A stretch of 64,000 nt of DNA from assembly GCA_013265495.1 (NCBI GenBank), contig MU058213.1, positions 434,001-498,000 of the forward strand, read 5' to 3'. Made by a program: the position numbers and the translations under genes. Position 1 is the stretch's first letter, and each line of letters begins with the position of its first letter. The notes beneath the pieces were generated by a model. The model saw only the letters and a program-made list of their open reading frames with translations. It was not told the origin of the DNA and made no database searches. This DNA is from Vicugna vicugna. Taxonomy: Eukaryota. Positions 28,895 through 56,802 of the stretch are shown here, one piece after another.

Positions 28895-29030
28895 GGGGAG
28901 GGTATAGCTCAATGGTAGAGTGCATGCTTAGCATGCACAAGGTCATGGGTTTGATCCCCAGTACCTCTGTTAAATAAAAAAATAATAATAATAAATAAGT
29001 AAACCTAATTACCCCTCCCCCCCAAAAAAG
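28895..29030 (+). mobile_element. tRNA-derived SINE (Vic-1-like)
   Basis: Same body and tail as the 15731 copy; 16-bp TSD TAAAGCAAGAGCTTCA (28876-28891 / 29031-29046). Confidence 0.9.
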
Positions 29031-35332: not shown

Positions 35333-37113
35333 TATACTTAGTAAGTAAGCGAAAATCCTGAAAATTTAGAATAGAGTAGCTTTTTAGAATGCACGTGAAG
35401 AAGACCCTGAAATGCAAAGTCTGAACTTGTTCTCTTAAATGCCCTTTGAATCATCGTCTTCCCCCTTCTCAGTCATCTAGGAATGGATTTGTATAATTTT
35501 CAACTTTCATTCTCCAGTATGCCTCTAAAATAGCTTCTCTTATGACAAGAGAAAGGATTAAGTTCTAGAGCAGCTGCAGAAAGTATTGGCTTTATTCCAA
35601 GAATGAGGAAATTCAGAGTTAAAACTTGTCTTCCATCCAGATTTTGTTGATTGACTTATACACTGTTAGAAGTGGACCTCAGTTTCCTCATCTGTGTAAT
35701 GAAGGATCTGAAATAAAATCAGCCCTGAGAGTTTCCCCAGGCAGGACCAGCAGCTGAGACCAATTTAACATCACTGCAGAGGCAGCTGCACCAAAATGAA
35801 GGCCTGCTGAGAATCCACGACCGGGGCTCAGCTCCAGGTCAACAAGTGATGATTTAATCAGGTGCCTCTGTGAGCTGAACAGTCAGTGATGCACATTAAT
35901 GAAACCGATGGGTAACTGCTCAATAAATTTGAGTAGAGAAAAAAGGTAACATGAAAAGGTGATCTGGAGAAATATATGCTGAAACTTTGTTTCTTTTTCT
36001 TTGTATTTAGTGACTTGAAATAAAAAAGAGACACATACCCAAATTATAAGAAATTCTGGTGCCCATTGGACACTCAGGCTGAGAAAGATGCTCTATGCTC
36101 TATTACTCTCTCCTCTTCCTTTATATGCTATCCTCCCAATATCATTTTCTTCAGCTCCTACATCGTTTATATCACCACAGCATGCCCAGCCTATATGTCA
36201 CCCAAATCTAGGACTCCAGATGCCTAAGATTTGCAAGAGGAAATAAAAGGGCTTTCTGTCCTCCCTCTCAGTCAGCTACATCCACTTTGAGCTCCTTCTG
36301 CCTTTGGAGAGCACCTTTGGCCCACCACAGGGGCATAAGCCATAACTGGGGCAGCCCTGACCTAAGCTCAGGTCTGTCCTTCTTGTGGTCCTGCTCTTCT
36401 AAACTGTGTGATGAGCTAAAGTTTCTCATGAGGCTTTAAGGTCAGTATCTTTTACTCTCCCTCCCACAGATCAGCATTGCTGAGAACACTAACCTCTACA
36501 CTGTGGATACCCAGAATTGCAATTGTCTGACTGGACATACCACATTTTGTTCATTTCTCAGAGAGAGACTCACTTGACAGGTTGCTGGATAGAAAGAAGA
36601 AAGAGAGCAGAGTGAAGCCTTAGAACTTGCCTAGGACACAAAAATTCCTCCATAAACTTTTCTTCTTCATCTACTCAATACTTAAATTTTCCAGATTTGA
36701 AAGGTACATGTATATTTTTAATCTGTTACCAGTCAATCAAAATTGCATGATACCAGCACAGACAAACTTGGCAGAGCAACAGAGTCCAGGAACATACCCA
36801 AGTCTACCAGAGAATTTTGCAGCAAAGTAGTATTTCAGCTCAGTGAGGAAAGAACGAAGTAAAAGATGGTGCGACAACTCACTAGCATTTTGGAACAAAA
36901 TTACGTTGGGACTCTACCTTAATTCTTATCCTAAAATTCATTCCAGGTAAAATGAAGATTTAAGTTTTAAAACATATGAAATCATAGAACAGATGGAGGA
37001 AATCAGAGGCTTTCTCATCATGGCATAAAATCTGAGAGATTAGTAAGTTTGACCATAAGAAAATGAAAAAGAAGTCTTTATAGTAATCAAAAAGACAGTC
37101 AAAAGACAAATGG

Positions 37114-37711
37114 AAAATGCTGGAGAGGGTTTGGAGAAAAAGGAACCCTCTTACACCACTGGTGGCAATGTAGTTTGGTGCAACCAGTATGGAAAACAGT
37201 ATGGAGATTCCTCAAAAAACTAAAAATAGACTTACCATAGATCCAGCAATCCCACTTCTGGGTATATATCCAGAGGGAACTCTAATGCGAAAAGATACAC
37301 ACACCCCAATGTTCATAGCAGCACTATATACAATAGCCAAGACATGGGACCAACCTAAATGTCCATCAGCAAATGACTGGATAAAGAAGTTGTGGTATAT
37401 TTATACAATAGAATACTACTCTGCCATAAAAAGAATAAATAATGCCATTTGCAGCAACATGGATGGACCTAGAGATCATCATTCTAAATGAAGTAAGCCA
37501 GTAGGAGAAAGAAAAATACCATATGATATCACTCATGTGGAATCTAAAAAAAAAGGACACTATGAACTCATCTACAAAACAGAGACAGACTCACAGACTA
37601 AGTAAACAATCTTATGGTTACCAAGGGAAGGGGGTGGGAAGGGATAAATTTGGGAGTTTGAGATTTACAAATGTTAGCCATTATATATAAAAATAAATTT
37701 AAAAAAATTTA
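37114..37711 (+). mobile_element. 5'-truncated young L1 (ORF2 C-terminus plus part of the 3' UTR), nested in an older L1M fragment (~36850-38500)
   Basis: ORF 37189-37491 ([11 protein letters not shown]...PMFIAALYTIAKTWDQPKCPS) is the L1 ORF2p C-terminus; TSD AAAAGACAAA(T/A)GG at 37101-37113 and 37712-37724. Confidence 0.9.
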
Positions 37712-39302
37712 AAAAGACAAAAGGAGCAAAATATTTTCAGCATGTTTGACAAAACTCTAATTTCCTAATATACAATATACTTAACAATCAGTTTTAGAAA
37801 CAGGAACTATAAGCTGGTAGAAAAATGGACAAAATGACAGAGATAGGTATTTTCTAAACGAAGAAATACAAATGCCTAAGAAAATTATTGTTCTTAGTCG
37901 TAATTTGAGAAATGCAAATTAAAGCAATTCAATAAATGTGAATGAAATACATTTTTACCCCTTGGATTGACAAAGATGAAAAAGATTCATAATATCCCAT
38001 GTTGGCTAGGGTAGGGAAAACAATGAATCTCCAACACTATTCCTAAGAGTAAGATTTCTCATAATCTTTGAGGGTATGTCAGTAATTTATCAAAATCTGA
38101 AACATCCTTACTCTTGGACCCAGCTATAATTTGCCCTACAGGCACGCTTCAGAAATGCCCCAGGACGTACTATGTTTGCAAGGGAACTTCACAGTTTGGA
38201 ACAGTACAGATGGAAAGCAGAACTGTCACTCGGTAGGGTGTAGCTAAATAAATGATGATCACTTACTACAGTGGAATGCCGTGCAGTTGTTTACAAGGAC
38301 AAGGGAACCATATATTTAACTACATGAAAATATATTCTTAATCTTAAATGAAAAATAAAAACATGTTTCAGAACAATATGCTAGTGTAATCCATTCACGT
38401 GAAAATAAGCATAGACGTACATGTGATTACACAGACAGGAATGTGCAGAAAATGTTTCAAAGACTACTTGCCAAACTGGCTTTCTTTTGGGGAATGGGAC
38501 TACTTGCAGAGGGAAGCGTTTATATTTTACTCACTTTTTTGTCTTTTCTAGGAACTTTTTAAAAAAATGAATGAATATAATATGAAAAAAATATATAATT
38601 TCCTTAAATTTAACTGTAAATTTCTATACTTACGTGCCCCCATTTTTTAAAAACTCTGCTTTTTAAATTATTATTCTGTGCCTCAAGTTAAAAAGCGAAC
38701 AGACAAAAAAGCCTCTTTCCACCAACTTAAAAAACTGAGGGGATTTTCTGTAGCCCCAATGACCCCTTTAGTGTTTGATCATTCTCCTGGCCATGGTCCA
38801 AACCACTTCAGTAAAGCTTCTTGAGGATCTCCTAGTAAGACTGGTGAGAGACAGTGGGCCATCTGGTTGATGATCTTTAGTTATTTTTGGATATGGATCC
38901 CAGAATAGAAAATTCCGTAATTGGATTGATTGCTATAAGACAGTGTCACGATTGCAGAACACCCTTCCTTTGTTTAAACAGCAGACACTGGAGTAAATGG
39001 GAAACACCAAGCATTAGCTTTGCTTTAATTTTACATCTGGAATCGTCTTTTCCTTTATCGGTAATTTGCTTAGTCTTTTCAGTTTAACATACCAACAGAC
39101 TCATCCATCTGTTAGATTTTGCTTCTAGACAAGGTATAGGTCTCAAATGACTGTATGAGAGAAAATGTCTCGTGACATTGTCCCTTTCGATTTGAGACTT
39201 TTGCCTTTTTGTGTAACGAATAGCCATGCCTCTTTTCCATGCAAGTAACTGTTTCCTCTTCCTTCTTGGCCGTCCTCCGTTTGTGTCCACAACGGCAATC
39301 AG

Positions 39303-39447: not shown

Positions 39448-41330
39448 GTAATGCGGTCTTAATATGTGCTGTTAGCGGTTGAAAGAGAGGGGTGACCATT
39501 CCTTTCTCCACTTCGAATATAACATCCCACAGATACCATGACACTCTGGTGTCAGCCCTTCATCAAAAGCACATTACTGCATGATCACAGGAATCCTCAT
39601 CATCTTCACTGTGTTGAAGTTTTATTGTAACATTTTTTCAAGAGAAACTGTTCTTTTTTTTCCAGACAGCCTTAGATTTTTGCTTGATTTCCCTTATGTA
39701 TTTACTTCTCCTTTACTTACTTCCTTACACATAATCACCCTCTGTTGTTATCTGCACTGGAAGATGGACACAGTGACATGGAAATTTCCAGTTCACTTAT
39801 GTTTGACTCCAGACTGTGCTTTTGTACTTGGGTTTAAATATGGTTATGTCTGATACACTGGGGATTTACATGCGAAATGAACTGACAGAGGTGTGCTGTG
39901 AAGGTCAGGCTCAGATGTAGCTTTTTCAGTTAGCCCTGCTTTAATCTTTCCTGTTACCCACTCTTTGCTGAGGATTCATGGCACGTCATCTGTTAGATTG
40001 AGGTGGAGCATGTCCTGGTCAACAAAGCAAAGAAGAATGGAACTGATGGGGAAGGCTTGGTCTGGGGACATCCCAGCCACTTGAAGCTGCATGGAAAAAA
40101 GGACATCCAGGTACAGACAATCCACTTGGCAAGCAGTCTGCTAACAGCAATGTTTCAGTCCCCAGGTAGAGGTTCGGGAACAGAATGCCAGACCTTGGTC
40201 AGGGGAACCGGACAAGGTTTCCCACCAAGTACAGTGCTGGTGGTGGACAAGATGGATGCTAAGGCTTAGACCCAGAAGGCGCAGATCAATGTCAGCGTCG
40301 AGTTCCCTGTCCAGACAGGCTCAGCCAAGACCCTGGGGCCCAGCCAAGGTGCAGCGAATGGCTCCTGAGACTGGCCCAGGCATATGACAGTGCTTACCTC
40401 CAAGGTGAAAAGGGGTGGGCTCGGGGGCAGCCCAGCAAACAGGGCTTTGGAGAATGATTGGAGCAGCAGTCGGAGGCGCCTGGGAAAACACAGTGGTCTA
40501 GGGCTGAACAACACGAGACCAAAGAAAAATAAGCAAAACAAGAGGTTTGAAGTAGAGAGCGATCCTGAGCCCAAGAGTGGCAGCTGTGGGCAACAGCTTT
40601 TGTGGAATTTCCTGCAGCCTAGGCAGGACCCTTGCCGGGGCACCTGTATTTTGCTGAATCCAGGAAGATGAGAGCAGCCCTCTTCCTACCCACCAGAGGA
40701 GCCTGCAGGTGAGGAGGTGAAAGGGAGAAGAACAGGGTTGCACAAACTGGGAAAGGCAGTCGGCGCAGCTTCTTTGACACTAGGTACCAGATTAAAGGAC
40801 CCTTAATCTCTTGAGTTTGCTAGCCATCTGAATCACACCTTCCTTGGAGGTTGATACTTCGGAATTTCTATTTGAAACAGGCTTGGAGACTTTAAACTTC
40901 TGTTTGTAGCTCCTCCTGATCTTGAAGCTGAAATCAGAATTCTGAATGTGTCGTCCTGGGGGGTTAGTTAGAGTAGCTGATGACTGAGTTACACAGAAGC
41001 TGAGAAGTTGCATCGGGGAAAGTAAACACAAACAGTTAGAAGTTCACTGTTTTGTGGGCTTTTTCTCGACCTTCTACTCCATTGAAAAGGGAAACTTCTA
41101 ACATTCAAGTTCCCAATTATCAGACATAACTTTATTTAAATGTGAATTCCACAAGGCACTGGACTTCTGTGTCATTTCCATTTCTTGGCAAGAGTAATTG
41201 AGTGTTGAAATTTTTGCTAACTGTGTCCTCTGGTGTGTAGGATTGCTCGTCTGTGTGGTTAATGTTGTTTGTCTGAAATTTAAGGACTGTCCCTTCGTCT
41301 GGTCTTTTTAAACCTTTCTTTCTCATCTAG

Positions 41331-41365
41331 TTCGTAAGAAGCGAGTTGAAGGAGACCGAAGGTAA
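41331..41365 (+). CDS. TMOD2: Tropomodulin-2 exon 10 coding part, VRKKRVEGDRR*
   Basis: Acceptor ctttctcatctAG|, TAA at 41363-41365. The nine coding exons total 1056 nt = 351 aa + stop. Confidence 0.96.
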
Positions 41366-43149
41366 ACTTCCACGAGAAGAGGCGAGGTTTCACCACGGCG
41401 GTGATTTGAAAACAAAAGTTTTTCTCCTTCTCCGTTGGGACCATTTTATCAAAGGTTATTCATTTCCGTTAACCACGCAACTCATCATTTAACTGTTTTT
41501 CTTTTTTAGCATGACTTACTTGTCTTGAAATTTTCAACATCTATTATTGTATTGCTGGCTCCTGGGCACCTCTGGCACCCTGGACCCGTGGACCGGTGCA
41601 GATCTGGGTGGGTGGCAACAGTCGAAAGCGATTTAACCACTTTCATATTAGGTTGTCTTGCTTCCTTACATGGACTTTTTTTTTATTTAACCATTGAAGG
41701 AACTTAGTATATAAATGTGTTTGTAACTGTGATTATGATAGAGGCCTTTCTCTGTTTACATGCATAATTTTGAGTAAGGCTAAATATATCAGAACACTTC
41801 TGACCCCGTGGAAGTTAGTATTGCCAATCTTTCCCTGGGTGAGAAAATGCGACCAGCTTAGCACAAATTCTCCCTTACGTTCCAGAAAAATCACTAAATG
41901 CACATGCCCCACTGATTGAAGATCAGCGGTATTCTCTTCATATGAAACAAGAGAGCATTATGATGCATTAACACAGCTTTAGCAAATAAGTGCGAAATAT
42001 TTATTAACCCACAAATACAGCTTCAAGCCAGACTCACAGGTAGCAGAATGAATTAGCACAGCTACCTTTACTGATTATTCCACATAAATCCGATCTTGAA
42101 TGTCACTATATGGATAACAGAAGCTGTTTTAAAGTTTTCCAGACATGATGGGACATTTTTAAACTTTAGCAAGGGGGAAGCTTTTAAAATAGTGCATTCC
42201 AAAATACAACAATAGTAATTGCACCTTAAGGTTGTCAGTTACACACGATTACATTGTCTTGGCGAATTTTAGAAGCATTTGTGGCTTTGTCTTTAGGGCA
42301 ACAAGGTTACAGGATGAAATGTGAACATTCAAATTAATCATATAGATTTTGTCTACATGGCATGATCCATCGAGACATTTGCAAACATCAGAAAAAAATG
42401 TGAATTATCCAGATGTTTGTCATCTCAAGGACAAAGCCTATGAAAGTACAGCTGAGGTGATCGCATGGTAGATGCAACAATCTTTTCATCTGGCAGCACA
42501 GCACTGTGATGTTAAGGGAAGGGAACGTGTGTCTGCAGCCTCTGGCACCAGCTCATGGGTCTTTGATAACTGTCAGTGCCTGAGGCTGGACTCGGTGGCA
42601 CTCTGACACTGCCTTAGGCACCTCTCCCTCCCTCCCCGCTGCTTTCCTTCCAACTCATTCCCTTTTTTCTTCTTTTCTGTATGATTTTGAGCCTTGTAAA
42701 GGTGACATCCCTTGTCCTAGTGATACCTGGAGCTGAAGAAGTTGCTGAGTCAGGCAGAAGGAGGGCCCAGTGTAGAATTTACTAAGTAATTGAGTGTCCC
42801 TGAGTTGCTTGACAGCAGTAAAACAAGTAAATGGGAAAACCATTCAGATATCACTCTAGTTACTTTGTAGAGCACATGGAAACTGTTTAGGGTAGAAAGC
42901 CTTTATAAAAGTGGACATTTACATGTATTATAAGTGCCCGCCTCTCTCTCTCTAAAATCCTTTGAAACATGAGAATATTTTACGTTTTTTGAGAGAATAT
43001 TGAGCAGAGCATCTTGAATTCTGGAAACTCTAAAAATCCTTTCATTAGTTTTCTACTACATCTCCCTACCTATATATATTTTTTAAAGTATTAACTCCTA
43101 CTTGATGGTTTTCAGTCTGGTTTCTTCTTCCCCTCTTACTCTTTTGGGT

Positions 43150-43570
43150 GTGGTGTGTTGGAGCCCACTCATACAGGTTCCCCGTTATTAAATTATCAAG
43201 AATTTTGCAAACTAGTTGTTAATAAGCACAGTCATTATTAAAAATTAAATGACATGCACTTACAATGAAATAAATTGTAGTAAAAAGCCAAACTAATACT
43301 CAAAAGTACATTTTACTATTTATATACTCTTGAGATGATTCGCAACTCTTGTGCCTGTGTGGCAGAAAGACCAGATAATGGTGTGCTGATGTGCATCTCT
43401 GCCCGACTCAGTGGTTCTTCCCACCTCAATTCAGTACTTCTTGTTGGTAGGTTGAAATTGGTAGTGGTGGGAGTATTTACACCATGGAAATCAGCAAATA
43501 TTACAGATCATGGCTTCAATGCTCCCTTTCCCCCCAGGTTGCTGGTTAATAAACATTCATCAGCACATTA
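43150..43570 (+). mobile_element. MER63-like hAT DNA transposon fossil in the 3' UTR
   Basis: GTGGTGTGTTGGAGCC..GAATTTTGCAAACTAGTTGTTAA..CATTATTAAAAATTAAAT...GGGAGTATTTACACCATGGAAATC...CAGCACATTA. Confidence 0.6.
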
Positions 43571-44164
43571 TATAAATATATAGAATGTATACAGTTCTTG
43601 CTTGCTTTTTGTAGACGTGTTTTATTTACCATGTTGCCAAAGGGAAGAACACTTCTCTTAGTTGTCTTTCTCCTATCCCCTTAGGTTTGTTGCAGATGTA
43701 TTTAAGTGCTGAGTCCCTGACATGCCCCACTAAGTAAGGCTTTTTCCTTTCTTTTCTCATTTACTCTCTCTCTTGCCTTCACTCTGAAGAAATCTTGGAT
43801 CCTACAGAGTGTTCCCTGCAGCCCCAAGGTGCTGTGGACCAGGAACTAAAGCAATTGTTGCAGACCCTGGCAGAGAGCAAGGAAAAACAAAAACAAAAAC
43901 AGGATTTGTTGACTATGCTGCTGTTGTTGATAGTATTAAAGCAAGATAATGAGATATTTCCAAATTAGTTCTGTTTCTAGCTTATAAAATAGTTGGGTCA
44001 CATGTAATAGAGTCTGCTAACTCAAATATTTATTATTAATCAGTTAATCATTTGCTTTTGAAGTAGCTTGAGAGGTGACATTTCCATGAGTATTCATGTA
44101 ACTATTAGAAGATAAATTGACATTCTGGGGAACGTATAAGTCATTTAATTAGGCTAGGACCATT

Positions 44165-44612
44165 TCTTCATCTGTCCAGTACGTGTGTGTGAGTAGAAGC
44201 TCTTTCGTGATCCTGAGCATAATTAATCCCTTGCCATCCGTCATGGTGGGGCATAATGTATATAAAATATTTTTATATGGAGGCATTTTGCCAAATATTA
44301 TGTCAAGGTATTTGGCAACATCTGGACAATTGACTGAAGGGAGATCATCTCTCCCCAGACCACCTCCTTTTCGAAACCTTTTAGACTTGTCCAGGCATCC
44401 ACTAGGTGTAAAATCACTCACCTGGACTTGCAGGCTCCTGTCACCAACACCCATCCCAGCATATGTGGAAGGTGACTTCTAGAGAGATCATGTCATTAGT
44501 CCAGTAGTATATCTCCCCATCTGCCTGCAGTGGATAATGGCAGCTGTTTTGTCCTCATCGGCACAATGAAATCCCTTCCTTTCATCTTGGTAGAGCATAA
44601 TGTAAATAAATG

Positions 44613-44645
<33 letters not shown>

Positions 44646-45175
44646 TTGCCAAATATCTAACTGGGTATTTGGCTGCATCTGGACCACTGATTGAAGGGAG
44701 ATACTCTCTCCCCAGCCCCATTTCCCTTGTCCTATTTAGAGTTGCCTCCGGCCCAAGTTAGATGTGAAGTCACTCCCTAGAGTTTGCAGCTTAGATCACC
44801 AACCACCAAATTTCCTAGCATGTATGGAAGATAACTCTTAGGGAGTAAATATCAGAAGCCTGGAAATCATTTCATCATTCCAGCACCGAATCTCTCCATA
44901 TGCCGAAAGTGTGTGAGTGGAAGTGCTTTCATCTTCATCAACATGAGGAAGCCCCTTCCTTCCATCTTTGTAGGATATATTGTATATAAATATTCTGTAC
45001 ATAACAATTGCCAAATACTGTAAGGAGGTATTTGGCTAAAGCTGGATACCTGATTGCAGGAGCTGCTGTCTCCCAGGCCCTCTCCCTGTCTCCTCTCAGT
45101 TGCCACGGGCCTAGGTTAGACAGAGAATCGCTAACCTGGAGGGGCACGTGCAGCTCACCCATCTCAGAGCACGCA
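44165..45175 (+). repeat. Diverged tandem triplication (~360-nt period) in the TMOD2 3' UTR; each unit has a Pumilio element and two hairpins
   Basis: Shared ordered anchors: CCCTT..., TGTAWATA (44257, 44601, 44981), GCCAAATA..TATTTGGC (44290, 44648, 45010), CTGGA..TGA.TG, GGAG..CTCCC, then TCACC. Confidence 0.85.
44615..44644 (+). repeat. (GT)15 microsatellite
   Basis: Direct reading. Confidence 0.95.
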
Positions 45176-47096
45176 GTTCATCCTACAAGAAACGCCCATC
45201 TCCATTTAAAAATTCAGAAAGCATCCTGATGCCTATACTCCTCAAGACAATTTCCCGGAGGGAAGCCTGGCCAATCAGACCCAAAGAACGGCTGCTTCTC
45301 TTCCAGACAGAAGTGTGGCCCTGGCATTAGGGCCACCAGTGTGTTCTGAATAACTCTACGAGAACGTTTCAGATAGTCAGACCTGAAACTGGCTTTAGCA
45401 TCAACATGCTATGAATGTAAGATAGCCCTTTAAATTTTATGAAAGCGTTTGCAGATAGTTTCTTTTTTCATGGATATGATGTACTTAGCCCTCCTGCAGG
45501 CACTGTGACAGAGGCAGAGGAAGTGTGTGAACTCTAGATTATTATAATTTGATCTGTGTTTCTGGGTTTGGGGGTAGAGCGCCTTTTTGAAAATCTTTAG
45601 TTCAAGTATTGATGACATCAGTGAAAATGGGTAGGGGGCAGTAAGTTGTGAATAGTGGGTTCTGTGGTATGTTGCTTATACTCAGCAGGACTGTTTTGGA
45701 GTTAGGTTTTAAGCCATGATTCTGAAGTTTCTTTCCTCTTTTCCACTAATGAAGCAATGATAGCTACTTTCATTTTAATGAGCATAGAACTAAGAGGAAA
45801 TATTCTAGCTCTGCCTTCCAGTAGCAGTTTCCCCTTATTGTTCCTTAGTGAAAATATCCCCATCACTCACCATGCCATCTTTGAAGGTAAAAGATTGAGA
45901 CACATGCAAAGGAGAGGTGTGAGAATGCTAGGAAGCATCAGGTGAGCCCTCTGGATGAAAATCACATGATCAGGCCTCCTAGCAACTAGCTGGAGAGAGA
46001 AAAGTACCCAGAACCTCAAGGATGTATTCATTGCTCTTGTTCCCAACTCTAGGTCAGACTGAATTTTGTTTTTGTCTTTCAGGAGTATAGTAAATTAAGG
46101 GGCTAAGTGCAGTGAGGAAGGACAATGGAAATTGAAGGTTTTAATTTGCTTAAGGGCAGAAGTAAGCTCTGCCCAGCTTACCTCGTTCCCATCTGCCCAT
46201 AACAGCGAAGATTAAACATTTAGTAGGTGGATGGACAAGGAGTTTCAAGGTTTGAATTTGTAACCTGCCTCTGGGTACTGTTCTAGGAAGAGTATACAAG
46301 AACCAGAGGTTATCCCAGTTGCGTGAGGCATCACTGACTTGGGGGGGTGAAGGAGCCTGGACCTTGCTCTGGCATCTTCCGTGGCAGTCATTCTGAGCAC
46401 ACTGGCTCTGCTGGTTGGTATGGTGGAAGGGCACCATACTGCAGATGTGGAGACTGACTCCTAATCCCATCACCAACACTTAGCAGGTGTATGATCATGG
46501 GCAATTCATTCAATTGCCTGACAATTATAGACTCTACAGGGGGAAGAGCACTGGATTTGGAGTCAAGAAACTTGGACACTTGGCTCCATACTTCTTTAGC
46601 TGGGAGACTTCAGGGCAAACCACTGAGTCTCTCAGGCCTGCGGTTCTTCAGCTATACTATAACGGGAATAATCTTCACTAACTACCTCACAGAGTTGTGG
46701 TGAGAATATGATCAGATAATGGGATGAAAACATTCTACTGGAAAGGGCTATACAAAAGTGGGAGATCATTTCTGTTATCTATCCACCAGTGTTTCCCACT
46801 GCCTCTCGAATCCATTTTATTTTCTTCTAACCAACCATTACATCTTTGCCACCTTTGTGAGTATGGAGAACTGACGCATGAGTGTGATGTGGGGGGCTGG
46901 AATTATTTCACTTTCAACACAGAAGGGGGAGAGGTGGTTGAAGGGCGTGGTGGGTGTTACGTATACCAGTTAGGAGTCTGGTCGGGCATTTTCCTGGGCC
47001 GCTTGACAGCACCCTGGGACATGGTCAGGACCTTGCAGAGAGCCTAAGGCTGGACACAGGAGGAAGCAACAGTGATTAAGAGTTGAGGTGGAGTTG

Positions 47097-47217
47097 GGGG
47101 GAGGGTATATTAGCTCAGTGTAGAGTGCCTGCTTAGCATGCACAAGGTCCTAAGTTCAAGCCCCAGTACCTCCATTAAAAATAAGTAAGTAAACCTAATT
47201 ACCTCCCCTCCTAAAAA
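47097..47217 (+). mobile_element. tRNA-derived SINE (Vic-1-like) within the TMOD2 3' UTR, followed by a short L1 3'-terminal piece (~47272-47319)
   Basis: GGGGAGGGTATATTAGCTCAGTGTAGAGTGCCTGCTTAGCATGCACAAGGTCC...AAACCTAATTACCTCCCC. Confidence 0.85.
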
Positions 47218-48573
47218 TTTTTTTTAATAATGAAATAAATTTTAAAAAATTTTATACTGAATTTAAGGCAAGTACACCAGAAATTAACACAACATTGTAA
47301 ACTGACTATACTTCAATTTAACAGAACTAAGGGGAGGGTCTGGAGCACTGCTGCCCTCCTGTAAGCTCGGTCACCCCTCAGGGGGTGGGGTAGGCTGAGA
47401 CTTGAAGTGTGAGTGGAGGCCTAGGAAAGAAGACTGTCCTTGGGGCTCCAGCAGCTCGAGCCCCAGAAGCGAAGGGGAGAGAGTGTCATTTGTGAGATCA
47501 GCTCTCCCGGTCATCAGCCGCTTTGTTATCACCAGCAACCTTAGCCCTGGTCAGTGTTATTTTCTGCTCAGAAAGATATTGAAACATAGTCTCAAGGGAC
47601 TTTCATAAACACTGGGAGGCAGGGACTGTCTCATCAACCTTTGTGTCTTCAGTAGCATCTAGTAAGGTGCCTTGTACATAATAGGTGCTTAATAAATGTT
47701 GCTTGAATTGAATTGTCCTCCAGCACCACAAGAATTATGCTCCATTTGCCACCGTGTGATGCTTTTGGAAAACAGTATCGATTTGGATGTCAGCTACGTG
47801 TGACGTTGGGCAAGGCTTTACATCTATCTTGTCTTTTCATTTGTAAAATGAAGTGGGTGGGTTAGATGCTCTCTAAGGTCCCTTCCAGCTCCAAAATGTT
47901 ACAATCGTGTGATTCTAAAATGTTTCCATTGCCTCTGAACATGGGTGAGCGATGCCTCCCTTGCAGCTCCATCTCTCCTCAGTAGGCTTTGTTCAGAAGA
48001 AGAGGTCCACAGAGTTATTTGTTCCTCTTCAGTGGTTTTTACTGTCTTCAGAATAGTTCTGGAGGAGCAGCCTTTTCAGAAAGGACATTTTAAAATATAT
48101 AATATTTTCTCCTCAAAATTGGTGGAGCAGGAGAGGAGGAAATGCAAAGAGAGAAACTGAGCATAGTAAACACAGCATGTTTTTCATAGGTTTTTGTCGA
48201 AAGAGAGAGATAGAGAGTGTGTGTGTGTGTATCTGAGCAAGTATTGACTGGGTGACAGAGAAACCGATCAGAAGTACACTGTGCAACTGAGGGAAGCTGG
48301 CCCAGGATTAAAACTTTCCCATGGATAATCTAAATGTGGATAGATAGGAATTGGCCATATGCTGAGATGAGATGGATAGAAAATGTACTTTTAAAGGAAA
48401 TTTTATTTTAGTACCAAATTTTGCCAGTGACAATCTTTAGTTAAGAAAGAAATTATTCTGAACTAAAGTTCTCATCTCTGCCACTTTGTTTTTTTTAACC
48501 CATTGTATGGATGGAATAATATTTATATTTTAAACCTTTATCTTAATTCTATTTCATCTATTTAAAGAAAACA

Positions 48574-49213
48574 AATAAACAGCATTTTTTATTGCATTTA
48601 AAAATGTAAAATACTTGCATGCCACCAATCTGTAATCTCTTACCAGTTCAGATGCCTGTAACTTGTGACCTTACGTGTACCTGTATTGTTTTAAAGAGAA
48701 CAAAGGAAATAATACTTTGTAGACGGTTTAAACTCATACTGGCAACATTTATTTGGCTAAGCAGTTATTGAAAAATTCACAGTTTCATTTTTCATTTTGA
48801 AACTTTTCAAAGGTAGACGATTATATTCATTAGGGAATTAAAGACTAATTTGCCTTTTAAATGTGAAGTTGAACAGTATGTGGGAAATAAATGTGTGCAA
48901 AAGCAAAATGTATGAAGTGTGAAATACTTTTACCCTGATAATTAATAAGGATCTCAGTTGTCAGAAACAGGTGCAGTGTTTTGACCCTTTGGAATTAGCC
49001 AGCCTGACTTAATGCTAAGGTGAAAATATACTGTTTTAATTAATCGAGATCATTCTGCTTTTCAAAGATATAATGTATTCATTTGTGTCTGGAATGAAAT
49101 TTCCAAGTGAAAATGTATAGCATATTAGGAATTAATAAACTTTCCTTTTAAAATGAAAGTAATGACTGATTTAATCTAGATAATTTTTAGACACAGTGTC
49201 TCTTTAAAATAAA
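48574..49213 (+). terminator. Cluster of polyadenylation signals (AATAAA at 48574, 48886, 49134, 49208)
   Basis: Four hexamers with nearby TGTA motifs and U/GU-rich downstream sequence; the main site is probably 49134 or 49208 (inference). Confidence 0.55.
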
Positions 49214-50689
49214 TGGTTGGCACCATGTTCTCATACTAGAAAAGTACATTTGCTAGAAAGGACCATAGAGTGCCCTTATTATGATGAAGATGAGAAGTAG
49301 GCAGACAGCCGGAAGTAGGCAGAAGAGAAACAAGAACTCATTATTAAAATGAAAATACCCACACGTATACACACACTCTCATATACACACATACATACAC
49401 AAAAGCACACATTCAGCTAAACAGTTAACATTTGTTAGGATAAGTGGGAGCAGGAATACAGATAACCCAAACGGGTTAAGTGTTTTACCTTGAAATTTTT
49501 ATATTAACTTTGGAATTAATTTGTTTTTGTAAGCTATGCTGGGATTCAAAATAGGGAACACTACAAATAATAAAGTTACATTGTAAAGACTTGTCCTGGG
49601 AAAATCAGAGAGCCTACTCTTTCTGCCATCCTGCTGAACTCTGCCCGAAGTCTTTGTCACTTAGACTGATGATGAGGTCCAAGCAGCATAGAAGTCCTGT
49701 ATCTAATTTCTATATTTGCCTATTTGCTTTCACACCTTTTCATTGTCAAGGAAGTACAGTAATTGTCCTGTTTAAAGGAGTCTTTCAATTTGTGAGGCTG
49801 TAAGGAGCAGGAGTGAACAAGTGTGCACATTGGGGTCAGACTTGCCTATTTCAAATCTCACTTCTGTTTCTTGTGTGAATTTCTGCAACTTACGTAGCCT
49901 CAGTTTCTTCACCACTAAAATAGGAATCATAATCCTACTTTACAGTAGGACAATTGGGAGGATTCACATGTGAAACACTTCAAGCACTGCCTGGCATATA
50001 GAGGGCACTTAGATATTAATACCCTAAATTCTGGACTAAATAAATATCCATGAATATTAATGACAACACAGTTCTCCATTTTATGCTGACAATGTCAGGA
50101 ATTTAAGCAGGACTGAATCTTCCTCATTTTTGTGTTTCCACAGTCCATTCCCTCTTGGCAGACAGGCACTCCCCCATCACTCCAAGATTCAAATATAAAT
50201 AAGATAGAGCTGACTCAGGAGTTACTCCTGACCCACCCTTGTGAATTTTAGCTCCTTGTGACTTCCCTGATGTTTCTGCTTGCTTGTACTTGCCCTGCTT
50301 TCTGGGTGCCCTCCTTTGGTTTTGGCAGTCTGGCTTCAGGAGCAGCTCCTTGACTTTGGGCCTGTTGTATGTTAGATTTGACTATGATATGGACCACCCT
50401 CCCTCAGCTGATCATTCAGCCTTTCTCTATGGTTCTGAGAATTGGTGCCCCATAGCCCCAGCTTCCCAGTCCCACCAGTCAGAGAACAGAATCAGATGCC
50501 CACAGCCTCCTTCCTGCAAATGTTCCACCTATCACAGGACCTCCGTGGGAACTACATGTGTGTGTGATTGAAGGTAGTGGGGCTATGCTCTGGGCCCAAC
50601 AAACCTAAGAAAGAAGATGATGTAGAAAAATGAGGCAAGTGCATAATTCAAAAGGTGTGGTGGTGGAGGTGAGGGGGGAAGTGGGGAGA

Positions 50690-51425
50690 GGTCTCCAAAT
50701 TGTAGACTGCTGAACTTGTCGGTCCTGAGCAAAATTTTAGAAAAGTGTATTTAGAAAACCACTGTCCACTTTGTAAGCACCGAGAGGTGAAGCAGTGATC
50801 TCTAAGAGGCAGCACAGATTCACTTAGAATAAATGATAGTAAGTCATGAGTATAGTCAAAAGAGCATACTGTGTCTGGATTTCATCAAGATGTTTGATAA
50901 AGTCTCACAACATCCTTGAGAAATGTAGCATGCATAATAGGGCAACTAACTAGTTAAATGACAGGTTCAAAGAATCCTTTTTGGACTCATGATCGTAAGT
51001 AAATACTGATGAATGAAAGAATTTCAACCAGAAGGGCTTAGCAGCCGCTACAGGGCTCTTTCCTTGATGAGTTTTGATCAGCAGTTCATCAGTAATTTGG
51101 ATGTGATACTCACAGAATACCAACTGAGTCTTTAGCTAATGACCACTGGGAAAGATAAGGAATACTTTGACAGTCTCAAAAGTATCTGAACAGACCAAAG
51201 TCCAAGCCTATGTCTAATCAGATAAAATTGAATAGAAACAACAGGATAGTTTTCTATTTTTAATCCAAAATGTCAACTACAAAAGGGAGAATGGGAAGAA
51301 TATGACTTAACTGCCATTTGTGTGGATAAAGACTTTGGTGTTGACTTAAAGCTTAACTGTGAATAAGACATAGAATGTGTCTGCCTAAAAGCTAACTCTG
51401 TCTTAAGTGACATTAGACAAAGAGT
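50690..51425 (+). mobile_element. Ancient CR1/L3 LINE fossil covering the reverse-transcriptase region
   Basis: Decayed codons in the correct order: LDFIKMFDKVS (cf. LDFSKAFDKVS), FISNLD (cf. FINDLD), KDFGV (cf. KDLGV), KANSVL (cf. KANAIL). Confidence 0.6.
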
Positions 51426-51745
51426 CTTGGTACTTGGCCAAAAATCTGCTGTTTGTCCTGGGCTTTGGGTCTCAGCTCTTGGAATGCCTATTTCAATGTT
51501 ATTATTCCCATCATCTTTGAACTTTGGCATCGTTGATGTTTATGTGTTTTTAAAGATTATTCTTACATCAGTCAATGGTGTTGCTGATCAGAACAAAGTA
51601 TGCCATTTAGATTTGCTATTGTTATAGGAATGTTCATTTTCAGATAAAGGCATGTATTCCAGATGTAAGCTGAGTGAAAAAAATTTGTTATTTATTTGTT
51701 GGAATTCTATCAAAGTATAAATGTATATAGCTAATTAGATAAGTA

Positions 51746-51827
51746 TTTTTTAATGGAGGTACTGGGATTGAACCCAGGACCTCATGCATGCTAAGCATGG
51801 GCTCTGCCACTGAGCTATACCGTCCCC
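51746..51827 (-). mobile_element. tRNA-derived SINE (Vic-1-like), minus strand
   Basis: Reverse complement of the same SINE body (TGGAGGTACTGGGATTGAACCCAGGACCTCATGCATGCTAAGCATG..CCACTGAGCTATAC). Confidence 0.85.
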
Positions 51828-52659
51828 TGCCCCAGTCAATAAATGTTTTTAAATTTTTAAAATAATAATATAAGGAAGGATAAGTAGAGATTACATCATA
51901 TCATAACTCTATTCTTTATAGAAGTCTTTGGTGTACCTAGTATTTAAAACCAGAATTTAATTCTTATTTAATTCCATTTAGGACATGGCTCTTGTTCATC
52001 CACTCACATCCGCTGAAGTTGGCCTCTGCGTGACAGTAGGAGAGCCTAATAGCTGACAGAGCTGGGAAATTATTCTCCCTATGCTACTGTGTTACACTTT
52101 ACAATTTTAACATTAACATTTTAAATGCTATTAAAACAATAATTTAAATTTTGGCATAAAAATTTAGGTTTATTCGTGTATACTTAGAAGTTTATTTTTT
52201 GCTAGTAATATTTGTGAGCAAGCTTGGCTTCACAAATTTAAATTCTTAGCCCTTTGGCATTGGGCTGAAATGTGTATTTAGTGCACCTCCAGTGGAGGCA
52301 CAATAGGGTATGGAAATCTGAGGGTCAGCAAAATGAATCCAAGCTGATGGCATTAGGGAAGTTTGAGTGAGAAACAGGCATTTGAGACGAACAGTGAACC
52401 ATGAGGAAGCTTCTAACAAGCAGAAGTGGGGTGATAGGAAAGGATATTTCAAGCTAAAGTGCTTGCTTGAATCCCTTCTATAAAATTGTATGCCCCAGCT
52501 ATGGTGTTTGTCTTCTCTGATTCCTACCTCCCACTGCTTTAACCAACTCAAAGCTCCCAGGAATGAAATCTTTAACTTGTAGTTAAAACTTCATGTCTTT
52601 AGCTTAAGTTTTCTCAGCTGTCTTAATAAAATACATTAAAAATGAGACAAATTAATTTA

Positions 52660-52920
52660 TTTGCAAAACAGAAACAGACTCACAGACAGAAAACAAACTT
52701 ATGGTTACCAGGGGGAAATGGTGCGGGCAGGGATAAATTGGGAGTTTGGGATTTGTGGATACTAACTACTATATATAAAACAGATAAGCAACAAGGTCTT
52801 ACTGTATAGCACAGGGAACTATATTCAATATCTTGTAATAGCCTATAATGGAAAAGAATATGAAGAGGAAAATATATATGTATAATTGAATCACTACCAA
52901 CTATACTTCAATAAAAATTT
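52660..52920 (+). mobile_element. L1 3'-end fragment (cetartiodactyl type)
   Basis: AAACAGACTCACAGAC..AAACTTATGGTTACCAGGGGG..CTGTATAGCACAGGGAACTATATTCAATATCTTG..TATACTTCAATAAAAA. Confidence 0.8.
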
Positions 52921-54069
52921 TTAATACATTAAAAACTACTTAAGTATATCAGGGAAACTATTTCCTAAAGGAATCCTTTGATAATAAGAAAATTGCTGCA
53001 GGCATTAATTTGAAAATGATGATTCAGTGTGACATGCTTTATGAGTTACTCTGGATGGAAGTTTAAAGATAACATTAATTAGGGCTCATAATACATTCAG
53101 TAAAGTTACTGTGTCGTTTTATCAATCACTTTCCCTCTAACCAAATCCTGAAAATTAGCAGGAAGCATACTCTGTTCCTTATTTCAAATATTTTACCTAA
53201 CAGTCGATTTCTTCTCTCTTGTATGTTAAACAAACTATTTTCCATTACTTGGAGTGGGATTGAATGCGTGTGTGGAGGGGTGCCACACCACTTCTATTTC
53301 GGATGATCGCCTTTCACGGAGTAGGCAGTACAATGGTCAGCTTGGCTGGGCCAGTCTCTAGTCACGAACAAACCTAAATCTCAGTCTACTTCCTGCTCAC
53401 ATTACATGTTAGCACCTGTGTTTGGCCGAGGCTCTGATTCCATTTCTCATTCTAAGACCCAGGCAGAAGGACCAGAGACTCTGTTTGGGACATGACTTTC
53501 TCTCTTGGTCGAAGGAAAGAGTAAGCACACGAGTGAGAAATGACACCCTTAAAGCCTCCACTCAAAGCTGCCGTGTTGTCACTTCCACTCACATTTTATT
53601 GGCCAAAGCAAATACTTGTAAGCTTTGCGATTACAGTATGACAACACTTGTGTGAAGAAAGAAGGAAAAGAAGCCTAAAAATGCCTACAGGGAGGCACTG
53701 CAAGTCACATAACAGTGGGTAGGGCTGTCTTTTCCTCTACAGGAGAGCACATATTTGGGGACAATATTCCAGTCCACTACAGGCATTTAGTGGATTAACA
53801 TTTTCACTTATTTACATACATATAATTTTCTGATTTTGCCTTTTTTTCTCTTCCAGAATTGTGTTCTTCTAACCATAAGCTAATAAAGGCAACCTATAAA
53901 GGATAGTGCTTTTAAAAGAGAGCTCTGTGTCCATTTCGGGTTGAGTTTCACTAGATTTTGTCCTGTCACAGCTGGCATTTATATCCACATCAGGACACTG
54001 ACTGATATAACGTGAACCCTGTGGTTCTGTGTCTCAAAATGAGTGCAGGAGGGGGAGGGAAGGATCCAA

Positions 54070-54620
54070 TATTCATTTATTTACAAATATTTATTTAATA
54101 CCTACTGTATGTCAGGCACTGTGGAGATGCTAGGGAGAGAGGGGTAAACAGTGCAAACTCCTTGAGCTCACGTTAGGTAAATAAGCAAGATGTTCGGTCA
54201 CTACTGAGCCCTACAGGTGCTTCATAGCACTACAAGTGCTAGGAAGACTAAGGAAAGAGAAGAAAGACAGGGTAAGATGATCAGAGAAGGCCTTTTCAGA
54301 GGTGACATTTGAACAGACCCTTCATAAAAATGAGGACAAGGGCTATGATTCTTTGGGAGGGAAGACTTCCATGTAGTGGAAAGATCTTGAAGTGAGAATA
54401 TACTTGGCAGGACTGAGAAACCTCAGGGAGACTATTGTAACTAAAGTAGAGAGAGAGGATGTGTGGTAGAAAAAAATATTGATATAAGGACTCGTAGGGT
54501 GGTAGTTTTGAATTGTATTGGAATGTGATGGGAAGCCATCAGTGGTTTGGAGCAGGAGGGTGACATGATCTGATTTGTTTTAAAAAATCATCCTGGGTGC
54601 TGGTATAGAGAATAGATGTA
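54070..54620 (-). mobile_element. L2 LINE fragment
   Basis: ATTCATTTATTTACAAATATTTATTTAATACCTACTGTATGTCAGGCACTGTG...; L2 antisense pattern. Confidence 0.65.
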
Positions 54621-56754
54621 GTTAGAGAAAGGAAGCAATGAGGAGGATTCTTTTTTTTTTTTAAGTTTTATCCAATACTAGGTTGTTAGTCTTAACACTT
54701 CTGGTTCCATACGTGGTATTTAATGTACATGTGTTTAAGAGATTCATATTTATAAGTCTTGTGATTGCAATATGATAACATTTGTCTGAAGAAAGGGAAA
54801 GAATCCATTATCAAATCACTTTATTTTCAAAAAAGGAACTAGAATAAGGTAAAGGCATTTGTTAGGACAAACTTAAAATGAAGAGCTAAAAAAAAGAAAA
54901 TGCATTTAATGTATACCTAATGCCTTATATTGGAAGATCAAGGAGGAAACGTGTAATAGTTTAAATCAGTCAGACATTGAATTTAAAAGCCCTCTCTGCC
55001 TAAAGAACAAAGCAGAAGAAGCCACAATCCTGCAAAAGAAAGTCCATCTTAAAATAAACCATACCTGGGTAGCCATGGTTCTCTGCTTTGCTTTTTCAGG
55101 AAATCTGTTTTGTCAGTTTCCCCAGGAGTGATGTCCCAGAGGTATAGCAGGAGATCACAAGAGACTGTTGGTTAGCCACAATACTTATACATTAACTTAT
55201 AATGAAATACAGAACTATCAAATAAATCCAGATAGTCAGCTCATTGCGTCAGAGAACCATCTCCCTGGACTGTCAGAGAATTTTTTTTAATGCACCTTGA
55301 ATTTGGTCACAGATTATCTTACTTTAAAGAATTTGATGAGATTTAGGAGACACATCAGTCTGACCAACAGTGGGAAGCATGCTAGAATTTGAGTCAGGCT
55401 ACCTGTACTTCATTTCTGGATCTCCGATCATTGGTTGCATGATATTGTGCCGATTACTTAACTTTCCTGAGTCTTAGTTTTCTCATCTGTAGAAGTGAAG
55501 CATACTAATGTATTCTTTGTAGGGTTATTTATAGAGGATTGGATTAGAGATTATAAATGGAGTGCTGGCACAGTTCTTGGTGTGGGTGAAGTATTCAATA
55601 AATATTAGTTGAACCTGAATTCTGCATTCTGAATTCTGTAGGTAATTGCTTTCAGCTGTTATCTCCAAGAGTATCTGAGAAATTGATTCACACTAAGATG
55701 CTATAAAAAAATAAGATACAAGCACAGATTTAATGTTAACTGTCTTCTAAGAGTATTTGCATTTAGGAGGTGTTCCCCCCCCAAAAAAAACCCTCCAAAT
55801 CATCAGTGATCTTTATTGCTGGAATTAGTGGATGCTAATTGCATGAAATTCCAGGATATTTACCTAGGTTGCTCCCTCCTCTGAGGGGAAGAAGTAAATG
55901 CCATTAGAGTCTTAACCATTAGTCGGCTCCCACACTGGGTGTAGCTGGAATGTATCTTAAGCAGGCACTTCAGTCCTATCTGGCTGTGTCTTTGAGAAGG
56001 TATATCAAAGCTGAGCATTACTTCGGGGAATGCTTCATTCCTGAAGAACAGGCCAGGAAAATTATCGGAGAGTGATTTAATGAACGGGAGTACATCGCTG
56101 TTTCCTCTCCTCAGAGCCCTGGACAAAAGGCAGCCATTTCATAGGCCACCCTAGGACCGTCCCCTCAGGTATTCCCGCTGTCCTTGTCTTCGCCCCCAGA
56201 GCACTCATCTGCCCCAGCTCCCCCTTTTCAGCAGCGCTTCTATTTTTTTCTCGCAGCTCCACCGCCTGGTGTACAGCTTTTAGCTGGAATGCGAGGATGG
56301 GGTGGGGGTGGAAACCGCCGGGTAACACAGGGACGACGGCTGTGACATCAACCCTGGTTGCAAAACCAAGGAGATCACTGGGGTCACTACACCCGTGAGG
56401 TGACGTGACATCCTCCTGATTTATTTCCCTCTTGTGCCTTGGCCTTTATTTGTTTCCTTTGCTATCAGTTTTTTTAATGACAAGTTTAAAGGGTTCGGTG
56501 TCATGTCCTCACATTAGCAATCAAGGGTACAAGTCCTGCCATCTGTGCTTCGTGACTGAAAAGTCAAAGTAAAGAGGAAATCTACAGTAAGGAGCCTCCA
56601 GCTGCTGTTTATAGCTCCCAAAGGGTCGAAGGTAGATACTTCCACGAGTCAAGAGTGTTTTCTCAGGCTGCAGAAAGGCTTGGTATCCGCAGCCGCTTCC
56701 AACCTGCAGATGGAAAGGACCAGGGTCTGCGCCCAGCCGCGCCCTCCTCGCTGA

Positions 56755-56774
56755 AACTACGACTCCCAGGATGC
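56755..56774 (+). promoter_or_regulatory. ZNF143/THAP11-type promoter motif (ACTAYRnnnCCCR / SBS)
   Basis: AACTACGACTCCCAGGATGC fits RACTACRnnTCCCAGnATGC. Confidence 0.75.
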
Positions 56775-56790
56775 TCGCGCGGTCTGAGAG

Positions 56791-56802
56791 TGCGCACGCG
56801 CG
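56791..56802 (+). promoter_or_regulatory. NRF1 binding motif
   Basis: TGCGCACGCGCG fits YGCGCAYGCGCR, just upstream of the presumed TSS. Confidence 0.65.

Follow-up and report, generated by a model that had tools for sequence, protein, structure and literature searches.

The 64,000-nt stretch of mammalian DNA considered here (hereafter, the window) contains three short hairpins that share their stem and differ in their loops, which raises the question of what holds the stem fixed and of what reads it. A sequence-only reading of the window had proposed that they are triply conserved copies of an RNA helix under selection, recognized by its stem sequence or shape and fitting no class familiar to that reading. 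The hairpins are located on the + strand at positions 44290..44316 (10 bp, or 12 bp with the flanking TT/AA at 44288-44318; loop ATGTCAA), 44648..44673 (10 bp; loop TAACTG), and 45010..45036 (10 bp; loop GTAAGGA). Their letters and coordinates proved exact in all three cases; the hairpin pattern has three matches in the 64 kb, whereas 100 shuffles gave none. The first copy is indeed extended by TT/AA, the first flanking pair being T.T in the second and third copies. The loops, 6-7 nt in length, are unrelated among the three copies and have diverged freely. As had been proposed, the + strand is preferred: the isolated folds have energies of -12.0, -13.9, and -13.4 kcal/mol on this strand vs. 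-9.1, -8.9, and -11.3 kcal/mol on the minus strand.

According to the protein-level comparison of exons, the window carries TMOD2, a neuronal actin-capping gene, on the + strand. Its first coding exon encodes a tropomodulin domain with up to 100% identity to tropomodulin-2 of many mammals, and eight coding exons were mapped at 11,894-39,446 (+). The last coding exon (41331..41365, +) ends in VRKKRVEGDRR-stop, the C-terminus found in mammalian TMOD2, with the stop codon at 41,363-41,365. The hairpins thus lie 2.9-3.7 kb 3' of the TMOD2 stop codon, and the tandem units that contain them (described below) lie 2.8-3.8 kb from it; the TMOD2 3' UTR is presumably about 8 kb long. For the interval 43,900-45,400, a fraction of 0.46 of the sampled words was found in three RNA-labelled runs of two studies and in one run guessed to be RNA, among the 24 runs listed, the matching sequences being contigs that carry neither strand nor continuity; two further runs contained only 0.20 and 0.08 of the words of this interval and are given no weight. 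AATAAA hexamers are present at 43,269 and 43,548, 5' of the tandem units, and shorter TMOD2 isoforms could end there, before the units.

Other features of the window are as follows. CpG islands occur at 1-1000 and 56000-58000 (observed/expected ratios of 0.8 and 0.7-0.9); the first is likely the TMOD2 promoter and the second likely that of the next gene, presumably TMOD3, its neighbour by synteny. LINE-1 3' end fragments are located at about 37100-37720 and 52660-52920, and we take them to be camelid-like. Two Rfam tRNA matches (51754-51824, - strand; 28898-28969, + strand) and a similar third stretch at about 47100-47190 (+) are presumably heads of a tRNA-derived SINE rather than tRNA genes. 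TMOD2 mRNA has been reported on neuronal late endosomes, a location attributed to its 5' UTR (bioRxiv 2026.01.19.700337, in excerpt).

Self-comparison of the window and a sequence model place the hairpins in three tandem units on the + strand, namely, unit 1 (~360 nt; 44122..44480), unit 2 (44483..44839), and unit 3 (44848..45197). No fourth unit was found in the 64-kb window with the sequence model or in 41,300-56,000 with a structure model (next best E-value 0.13); the Tandem Repeats Finder program applied to the window did not detect the three units. The homology of the units spans their whole length, with a pairwise identity of 61-66%, and 164 of 334 ungapped columns are invariant. At a neutral rate of roughly 2e-9 per site and year, the Jukes-Cantor distances among the units (0.45-0.55) suggest that the triplication is about 100 Myr old or older, so the units are predicted to be common to placental mammals. 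A search for orthologues with the hairpin pattern gave two matches in metagenome contigs and none in viral contigs or prokaryote genomes; since the two contigs (L001 and L002) have no BLAST similarity to the window, these matches are attributed to chance. The match in L001 (360-412), an animal-like metagenome contig, falls within a short element that has repeated GGAACTGGA words on its flanks.

Apart from the long hairpin, every unit carries a short hairpin 3' of it (44339..44355, +, in unit 1), whose GGAG/CTCC core is invariant in all three units and which is 6 bp long in the first two. Unit 2 also contains a (GT)15 microsatellite (44615..44644, +) between its Pumilio element and hairpin 2, in the place where unit 3 carries a second Pumilio motif. 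The microsatellite is likely length-polymorphic; UG-repeat RNA is of the kind bound by TDP-43 or CELF proteins.

The triple conservation is therefore real and exact, but the copies are paralogues within a tandem triplication and do not count as independent occurrences, so that the comparison with shuffles makes them look more surprising than they are. To assess the retention of the stem, neutral drift was simulated at the observed level of identity (one million draws for each setting), with unit 1 as a stand-in ancestor and the hairpin assumed ancestral. The chance that all 10 pairs are kept in three lineages was 1.3-1.5e-4, and the chance that the outer 16 bases are invariant was 6e-6 to 7e-5. 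The two arms are the longest invariant runs among the units (10 and 10 columns; the next is 6). Position-free column shuffling, before complementarity is counted, gave 0.005 for two invariant runs of at least 10 columns and 0.011 for two runs of at least 8 within 15 columns. Because the chances of neutral retention are so low, the stem is likely under selection, the conservation evidence being drawn entirely from three paralogous copies of one genome.

What the selection acts on is less clear-cut than had been claimed. The inner pairs indeed stay paired only in the RNA of the + strand, but the wobble-consistent changes amount to two one-sided C/T transitions; across the units, two-sided changes occur in 0 of 16 compared pairs and one-sided changes in 3 of 16, and transitions make up 55% of all two-state differences among the units. 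Unit-level folding z-scores (-1.37, -1.14, and -1.17 on the + strand; -1.44, -1.87, and -0.99 on the minus strand) are not significant, and the minus strand is as good. A single hairpin of such strength is ordinary here, since 19 stems of at least 10 bp with an MFE of -10 or lower, some of them overlapping, were counted in the window. In local folds, hairpin 1 has a predicted formation probability of 0.94-0.99 and hairpin 2 of 1.0, the latter being absent from single folds at a span of 150-250 nt; hairpin 3 has only 0.33-0.63 in these local folds and is predicted to be mostly not formed in its context (0.01-0.63). Thus, selection and a reading on the mRNA strand are supported, by the retention far above neutral, the free loops, and the sense-strand Pumilio motifs beside each hairpin, whereas the case for a helix recognized by its shape is weaker than claimed in view of the lack of two-sided changes, the weak z-scores of the units, and the mostly unfolded state of copy 3.

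The claim that the hairpins fit no known class held against the Rfam covariance models, none of which reached the gathering threshold in the region (best E-value 0.39, all 12 matches far below the threshold). The identities of IRE, histone stem-loop, and SECIS are ruled out on this basis, and that of a pre-microRNA on the same basis and by the stem, which is too short. The Roquin CDE has a conserved three-base loop on a short stem and is ruled out by the unrelated 6-7-nt loops. Families of paralogous hairpins in a single 3' UTR, for example that of MAT2A, are reportedly collected in EvoFam. The MAT2A hairpins conserve a loop read by METTL16; the likeness to TMOD2 lies in several similar hairpins in one UTR and the difference in the TMOD2 loops, which are free while the stem is fixed.

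The letters of the stem, in addition to its pairing, are informative. Each 5' arm holds the invariant 8-mer UUGCCAAA, which matches microRNA positions 2-8 with an A opposite position 1 in all three units. In the excerpted text of PMC3273822, the miR-96/182 seed is UUGGCA, position 8 of miR-182 is A, and a site TTTTGCCAAAT made a reporter responsive to miR-182; TTGCCAAA is therefore the miR-182 8-mer site. It occurs on the + strand at 44288..44295, where it is wholly paired, and as exact 8-mers at 44646..44653 and 45008..45015, which places the three sites 2.9-3.6 kb 3' of the stop codon. The invariant 5' run begins two T's 5' of the stem, and the second T faces a T in copies 2 and 3. Since this T of the 8-mer is invariant despite facing T in two of three copies, the constraint exceeds pairing; the chance that the two extra T's are both invariant is about 22% (0.47 squared). 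Conversely, the neutral chance that 10 bases of the 3' arm are invariant is 0.0007-0.0024, so the seed alone is insufficient to account for the fixed 3' arm. The match was found post hoc, and a rough estimate gives 2-5% for an invariant 10-mer pair matching some conserved microRNA 8-mer. In total, four miR-182 8-mers are present in 8.2 kb vs. 0.34 expected, three of which share descent.

The fourth 8-mer (43634..43641, +) lies outside the units and has no conserved hairpin (structure-model E-value 2.5), and a 7-mer-m8 match is found at 41821-41827, 3' of the stop codon. These two matches are predicted to be fairly open, with opening costs of 4.2 and 0.8 kcal/mol, respectively. A near-Pumilio sequence, TGTATACA, is located about 50 nt 5' of the match at 43634.

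A microRNA site buried in 10-12 bp is in an unusual place for a working site. The TMOD2 sites share the exact UUGCCAAA with canonical 8-mer sites of miR-182-5p (miR-183/96/182 cluster; PMC3273822, in excerpt) and are also 7-mer-A1 sites for miR-96/miR-1271; canonical sites are open sequence, whereas those of TMOD2 lie inside a retained 10-12 bp stem in two of the three copies. Human TMOD2 is among 268 differentially expressed genes of ovarian cancer that overlap miRWalk-predicted miR-182 targets (PMC6839211), which is weak evidence because 3,240 targets were predicted. In Xenopus axons, miR-182 silences cofilin-1 mRNA reversibly (PMC5300892). The Mir182-knockout organ of Corti, as presented in the excerpt of PMC7903918, shows no seed enrichment, which counts against the miR-182 reading, and Tmod2 is absent from the one supplement on the Mir182-knockout organ of Corti that was searched.

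The Pumilio consensus UGUANAUA (PMC5758885, in excerpt) is matched on the sense strand by four motifs in the units, which are candidate PUM1/2 sites: TGTATATA followed by an invariant AA in unit 1 (44257..44266), TGTAAATA followed by AA in unit 2 (44601..44610), TGTATATA followed by AA in unit 3 (44981..44990), and a second element, TGTACATA, in unit 3 only (44996..45003). The string UGUA-N-AUA with AA is present in all three units and varies only at N, the degenerate position 5; the simulated neutral chance of this retention is 0.007-0.015. Four of the five such motifs in 41,364-49,600 are inside the units, and six occur in the 41 kb upstream. The gaps between the Pumilio motifs and the miR-182 seed matches are 23, 37, 19, and 4 nt and fall inside the 50 nt taken as the range of cooperation between PUM and microRNAs (excerpts of PMC3667768 and PMC9522289). 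Among the seven PUM-cooperating microRNAs listed in the excerpted text of PMC3667768, miR-182 is not included, and TMOD2 has no entry among those listed for a PUM reporter library. The motifs at 44257, 44601, and 44981 overlap polyadenylation-like hexamers at 44,261 (TATAAA), 44,605 (AATAAA), and 44,985 (TATAAA) as well as UAAA motifs; UAAA is the type of motif bound by SAM68 in NORAD (PMC5828396, in excerpt).

The predicted cost of opening the 8-mer differs among the copies. Against a background of 150 random sites (median 3.0, 90th percentile 6.1), it is 7.6-8.2 kcal/mol for copy 1, 10.5-11.8 kcal/mol at short span and 3.9 at a 120-nt span for copy 2, and 0.2-1.5 kcal/mol for copy 3. The seed match of copy 3 is predicted to be open because a downstream segment, 45,041-45,051, captures the 3' arm of the hairpin in a competing 11-bp helix (45026..45051, +; 11 of 11 pairs), which prevails by about 2.5 kcal/mol. 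In units 1 and 2, the homologous segments (at 44,321, with 8 of 11 pairs, and at 44,678, with 7 of 11) lose to the hairpin, as their rival helix is less favourable than the free ensemble by 5.6 and 15.4 kcal/mol, respectively; hence, such a switch is not common to all units. The CTGGA core of these segments is invariant. Full 11/11 pairing with the copy-3 arm is found in three of about 8,200 downstream 11-mers, one of which is the copy-2 arm. Masking the Pumilio motifs changed the opening cost from 6.6 to 6.4, from 6.9 to 7.0, and from 1.0 to 0.5, i.e., by at most 0.5 kcal/mol.

Two known systems resemble this arrangement. The first is the structure switch between Pumilio and a microRNA in p27, which is reportedly due to Kedde (2010). 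In the p27 (CDKN1B) 3' UTR, a Pumilio element pairs with the miR-221/222 site, and PUM binding opens it (excerpts of PMC3667768 and PMC9522289). Both cases have a seed match concealed in a hairpin no more than 50 nt from a Pumilio element, the occlusion in TMOD2 being predicted for copies 1 and 2 only; in TMOD2, however, the partner of the seed is a separate dedicated arm instead of the Pumilio motif, and there are three copies of the module. A switch of the p27 type is ruled out here, as the Pumilio motif is outside the stem and masking it has the negligible effect given above.

The second system is NORAD, a lncRNA of 12 units with at least 17 PREs that antagonises PUM (excerpts of PMC4947167, PMC5828396, and PMC7617650). 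Its tandem units are ~300 nt long and at least 100 Myr old (excerpts of PMC4947167 and PMC5828396), and their order is PRE, short hairpin, U-rich segment, long hairpin, and A/G-rich segment (PMC5828396, in excerpt). The TMOD2 locus resembles it in being built of old tandem units, 300-360 nt long, that each combine one or two Pumilio elements with UAAA, a long hairpin, and a short hairpin of 4 bp. It differs in consisting of three units placed in cis in what is probably an mRNA, downstream of the coding exons and on the same strand, and in the long hairpin, which precedes the short one in TMOD2, whereas that of the NORAD unit NRU7 differs in sequence and comes after the short one. Based on the hairpin sequence and the order of motifs, compared by eye with NRU7 and NRU9, identity with the NORAD repeat is ruled out. 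NRU7 also has TTGCCAA, a 7-mer match to miR-182, just after its long hairpin, and NRU9 has TTGCCAG, as far as the excerpted NORAD sequences go; the loose resemblance that about 20 nt of NRU7 show to unit 1 by eye is probably due to chance.

The reading to which we lean, while giving it somewhat less than an even chance, is a triplicated module of a long 3' UTR, each hairpin gating the access of miR-182 beside Pumilio sites. This reading covers both the fixed 3' arm and the exact 8-mer with its unpaired invariant T. The sequence itself establishes the gene, the three units, the invariant motifs, and the potential to pair; beyond this, the units would be carried in the mature long TMOD2 isoform, and PUM1/2 would bind the Pumilio motifs. 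In copies 1 and 2, the seed match is predicted to be hidden by the stem, and in copy 3 the downstream segment is predicted to capture the 3' arm and expose the match. Argonaute loaded with miR-182 would bind only an opened stem, whether opened via the alternative helix or by some protein or helicase; Pumilio binding by itself is not predicted to open it. The effects of Pumilio and the microRNA would then add up, and TMOD2 mRNA would be repressed or destabilised in neurons rich in miR-182.

The alternative that survives best, possible but clearly less probable, is a scaffold similar to NORAD, in which the hairpin docks a stem-reading protein or positions the Pumilio sites, the array of four Pumilio motifs and UAAA controls the stability or localisation of TMOD2 mRNA, and the miR-182 match is incidental. 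The repertoire of motifs parallels that of the NORAD units, with PREs, UAAA, and a long and a 4-bp short hairpin (excerpts of PMC4947167 and PMC5828396), and the GGAG/CTCC core of the short hairpin is kept in every unit. Moreover, given that all pairs are kept, the neutral conditional chance that the outer 16 bases are fully invariant is roughly 0.05-0.46, which leaves room for selection on shape alone. This explanation, however, does not account for the invariant unpaired T and the exact 8-mer, hairpin 3 is predicted to be mostly unfolded in its context (0.01-0.63), and the proteins that bind the NORAD hairpins remain unidentified according to the excerpted text of PMC7617650.

Gated alternative polyadenylation is an unlikely explanation. 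Each unit has UGUA and (U/A)AUAAA, and the hairpin, 22-37 nt downstream, would hide the cleavage site and a GU-rich element, so that the sites would be skipped or used conditionally. The hexamers TATAAA, AATAAA, and TATAAA (44,261, 44,605, and 44,985) are kept in all three units, the AA after the Pumilio motif completing each of them. Against this, UGUA abutting a hexamer is the ordinary look of a Pumilio motif, the 8-mer is left unexplained, and two of the three unit hexamers are TATAAA, a weak variant. A model of UGUA, structure, and AAUAAA has been discussed for another gene (bioRxiv 2026.10.24.761493).

It is very improbable that the hairpins are a neutral relic left by an old duplication in tandem, perhaps of a decayed piece of a transposon, and kept by patchy survival or local gene conversion. 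End-to-end homology of the units (61-66%) with a core more alike than the flanks, the occurrence of strong hairpins about once per 4-5 kb in this region, and position-free shuffles of only 0.005-0.011 would suit such a relic; nevertheless, neutral retention has a chance of 6e-6 to 1.5e-4 for the stem and about 0.01 for the Pumilio motif, and the free divergence of the loops between the arms is incompatible with conversion. The least probable reading is a DNA-level element of inverted transcription-factor half-sites (TGCCAA/TTGGC presumably resembles an NFI half-site) in an enhancer that would precede the next CpG island by about 12 kb: invariant arms without covariation suit a DNA palindrome equally and a CpG island does lie at 56-58 kb, but the halves diverge and the spacer varies, unlike the NFI layout TTGGC-N5-GCCAA, the Pumilio motifs retained alongside are RNA motifs specific to one strand, and the inner changes preserve pairing only in the RNA of the + strand.

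An extension of the gated miR-182 module, which we consider a rather long shot, is that a NORAD-like array evolved independently in an mRNA and that each unit is a switch of arm, anti-arm, and decoy arm that sets the access of miR-182. The copies would have drifted to closed, closed, and open states and would form a graded, signal-reversible gate beside Pumilio sites on an actin-capping mRNA in neurons. Such a gate would provide a cis-encoded route to the rapid and reversible shifts of miR-182 silencing that have been observed in growth cones.

The units have no description in the literature searched, and genome-wide lists of structures may already include the hairpins; TMOD is absent from the main text of three conserved-structure screens and from the portions of two supplements examined. 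The ingredients of the gated module are each known, and their triplicated, lidded arrangement in an mRNA appears to be undescribed. Few microRNA sites are documented as concealed by a helix that is dedicated to them and under selection, and in the p27 model the Pumilio element is within the helix. With three replicate units whose arms are fixed, whose loops are free, and whose predicted openness differs, microRNA gates can be tested directly against protein scaffolds. If the gated miR-182 module is real, it would name a regulatory input for the dosage of TMOD2 in neurons.
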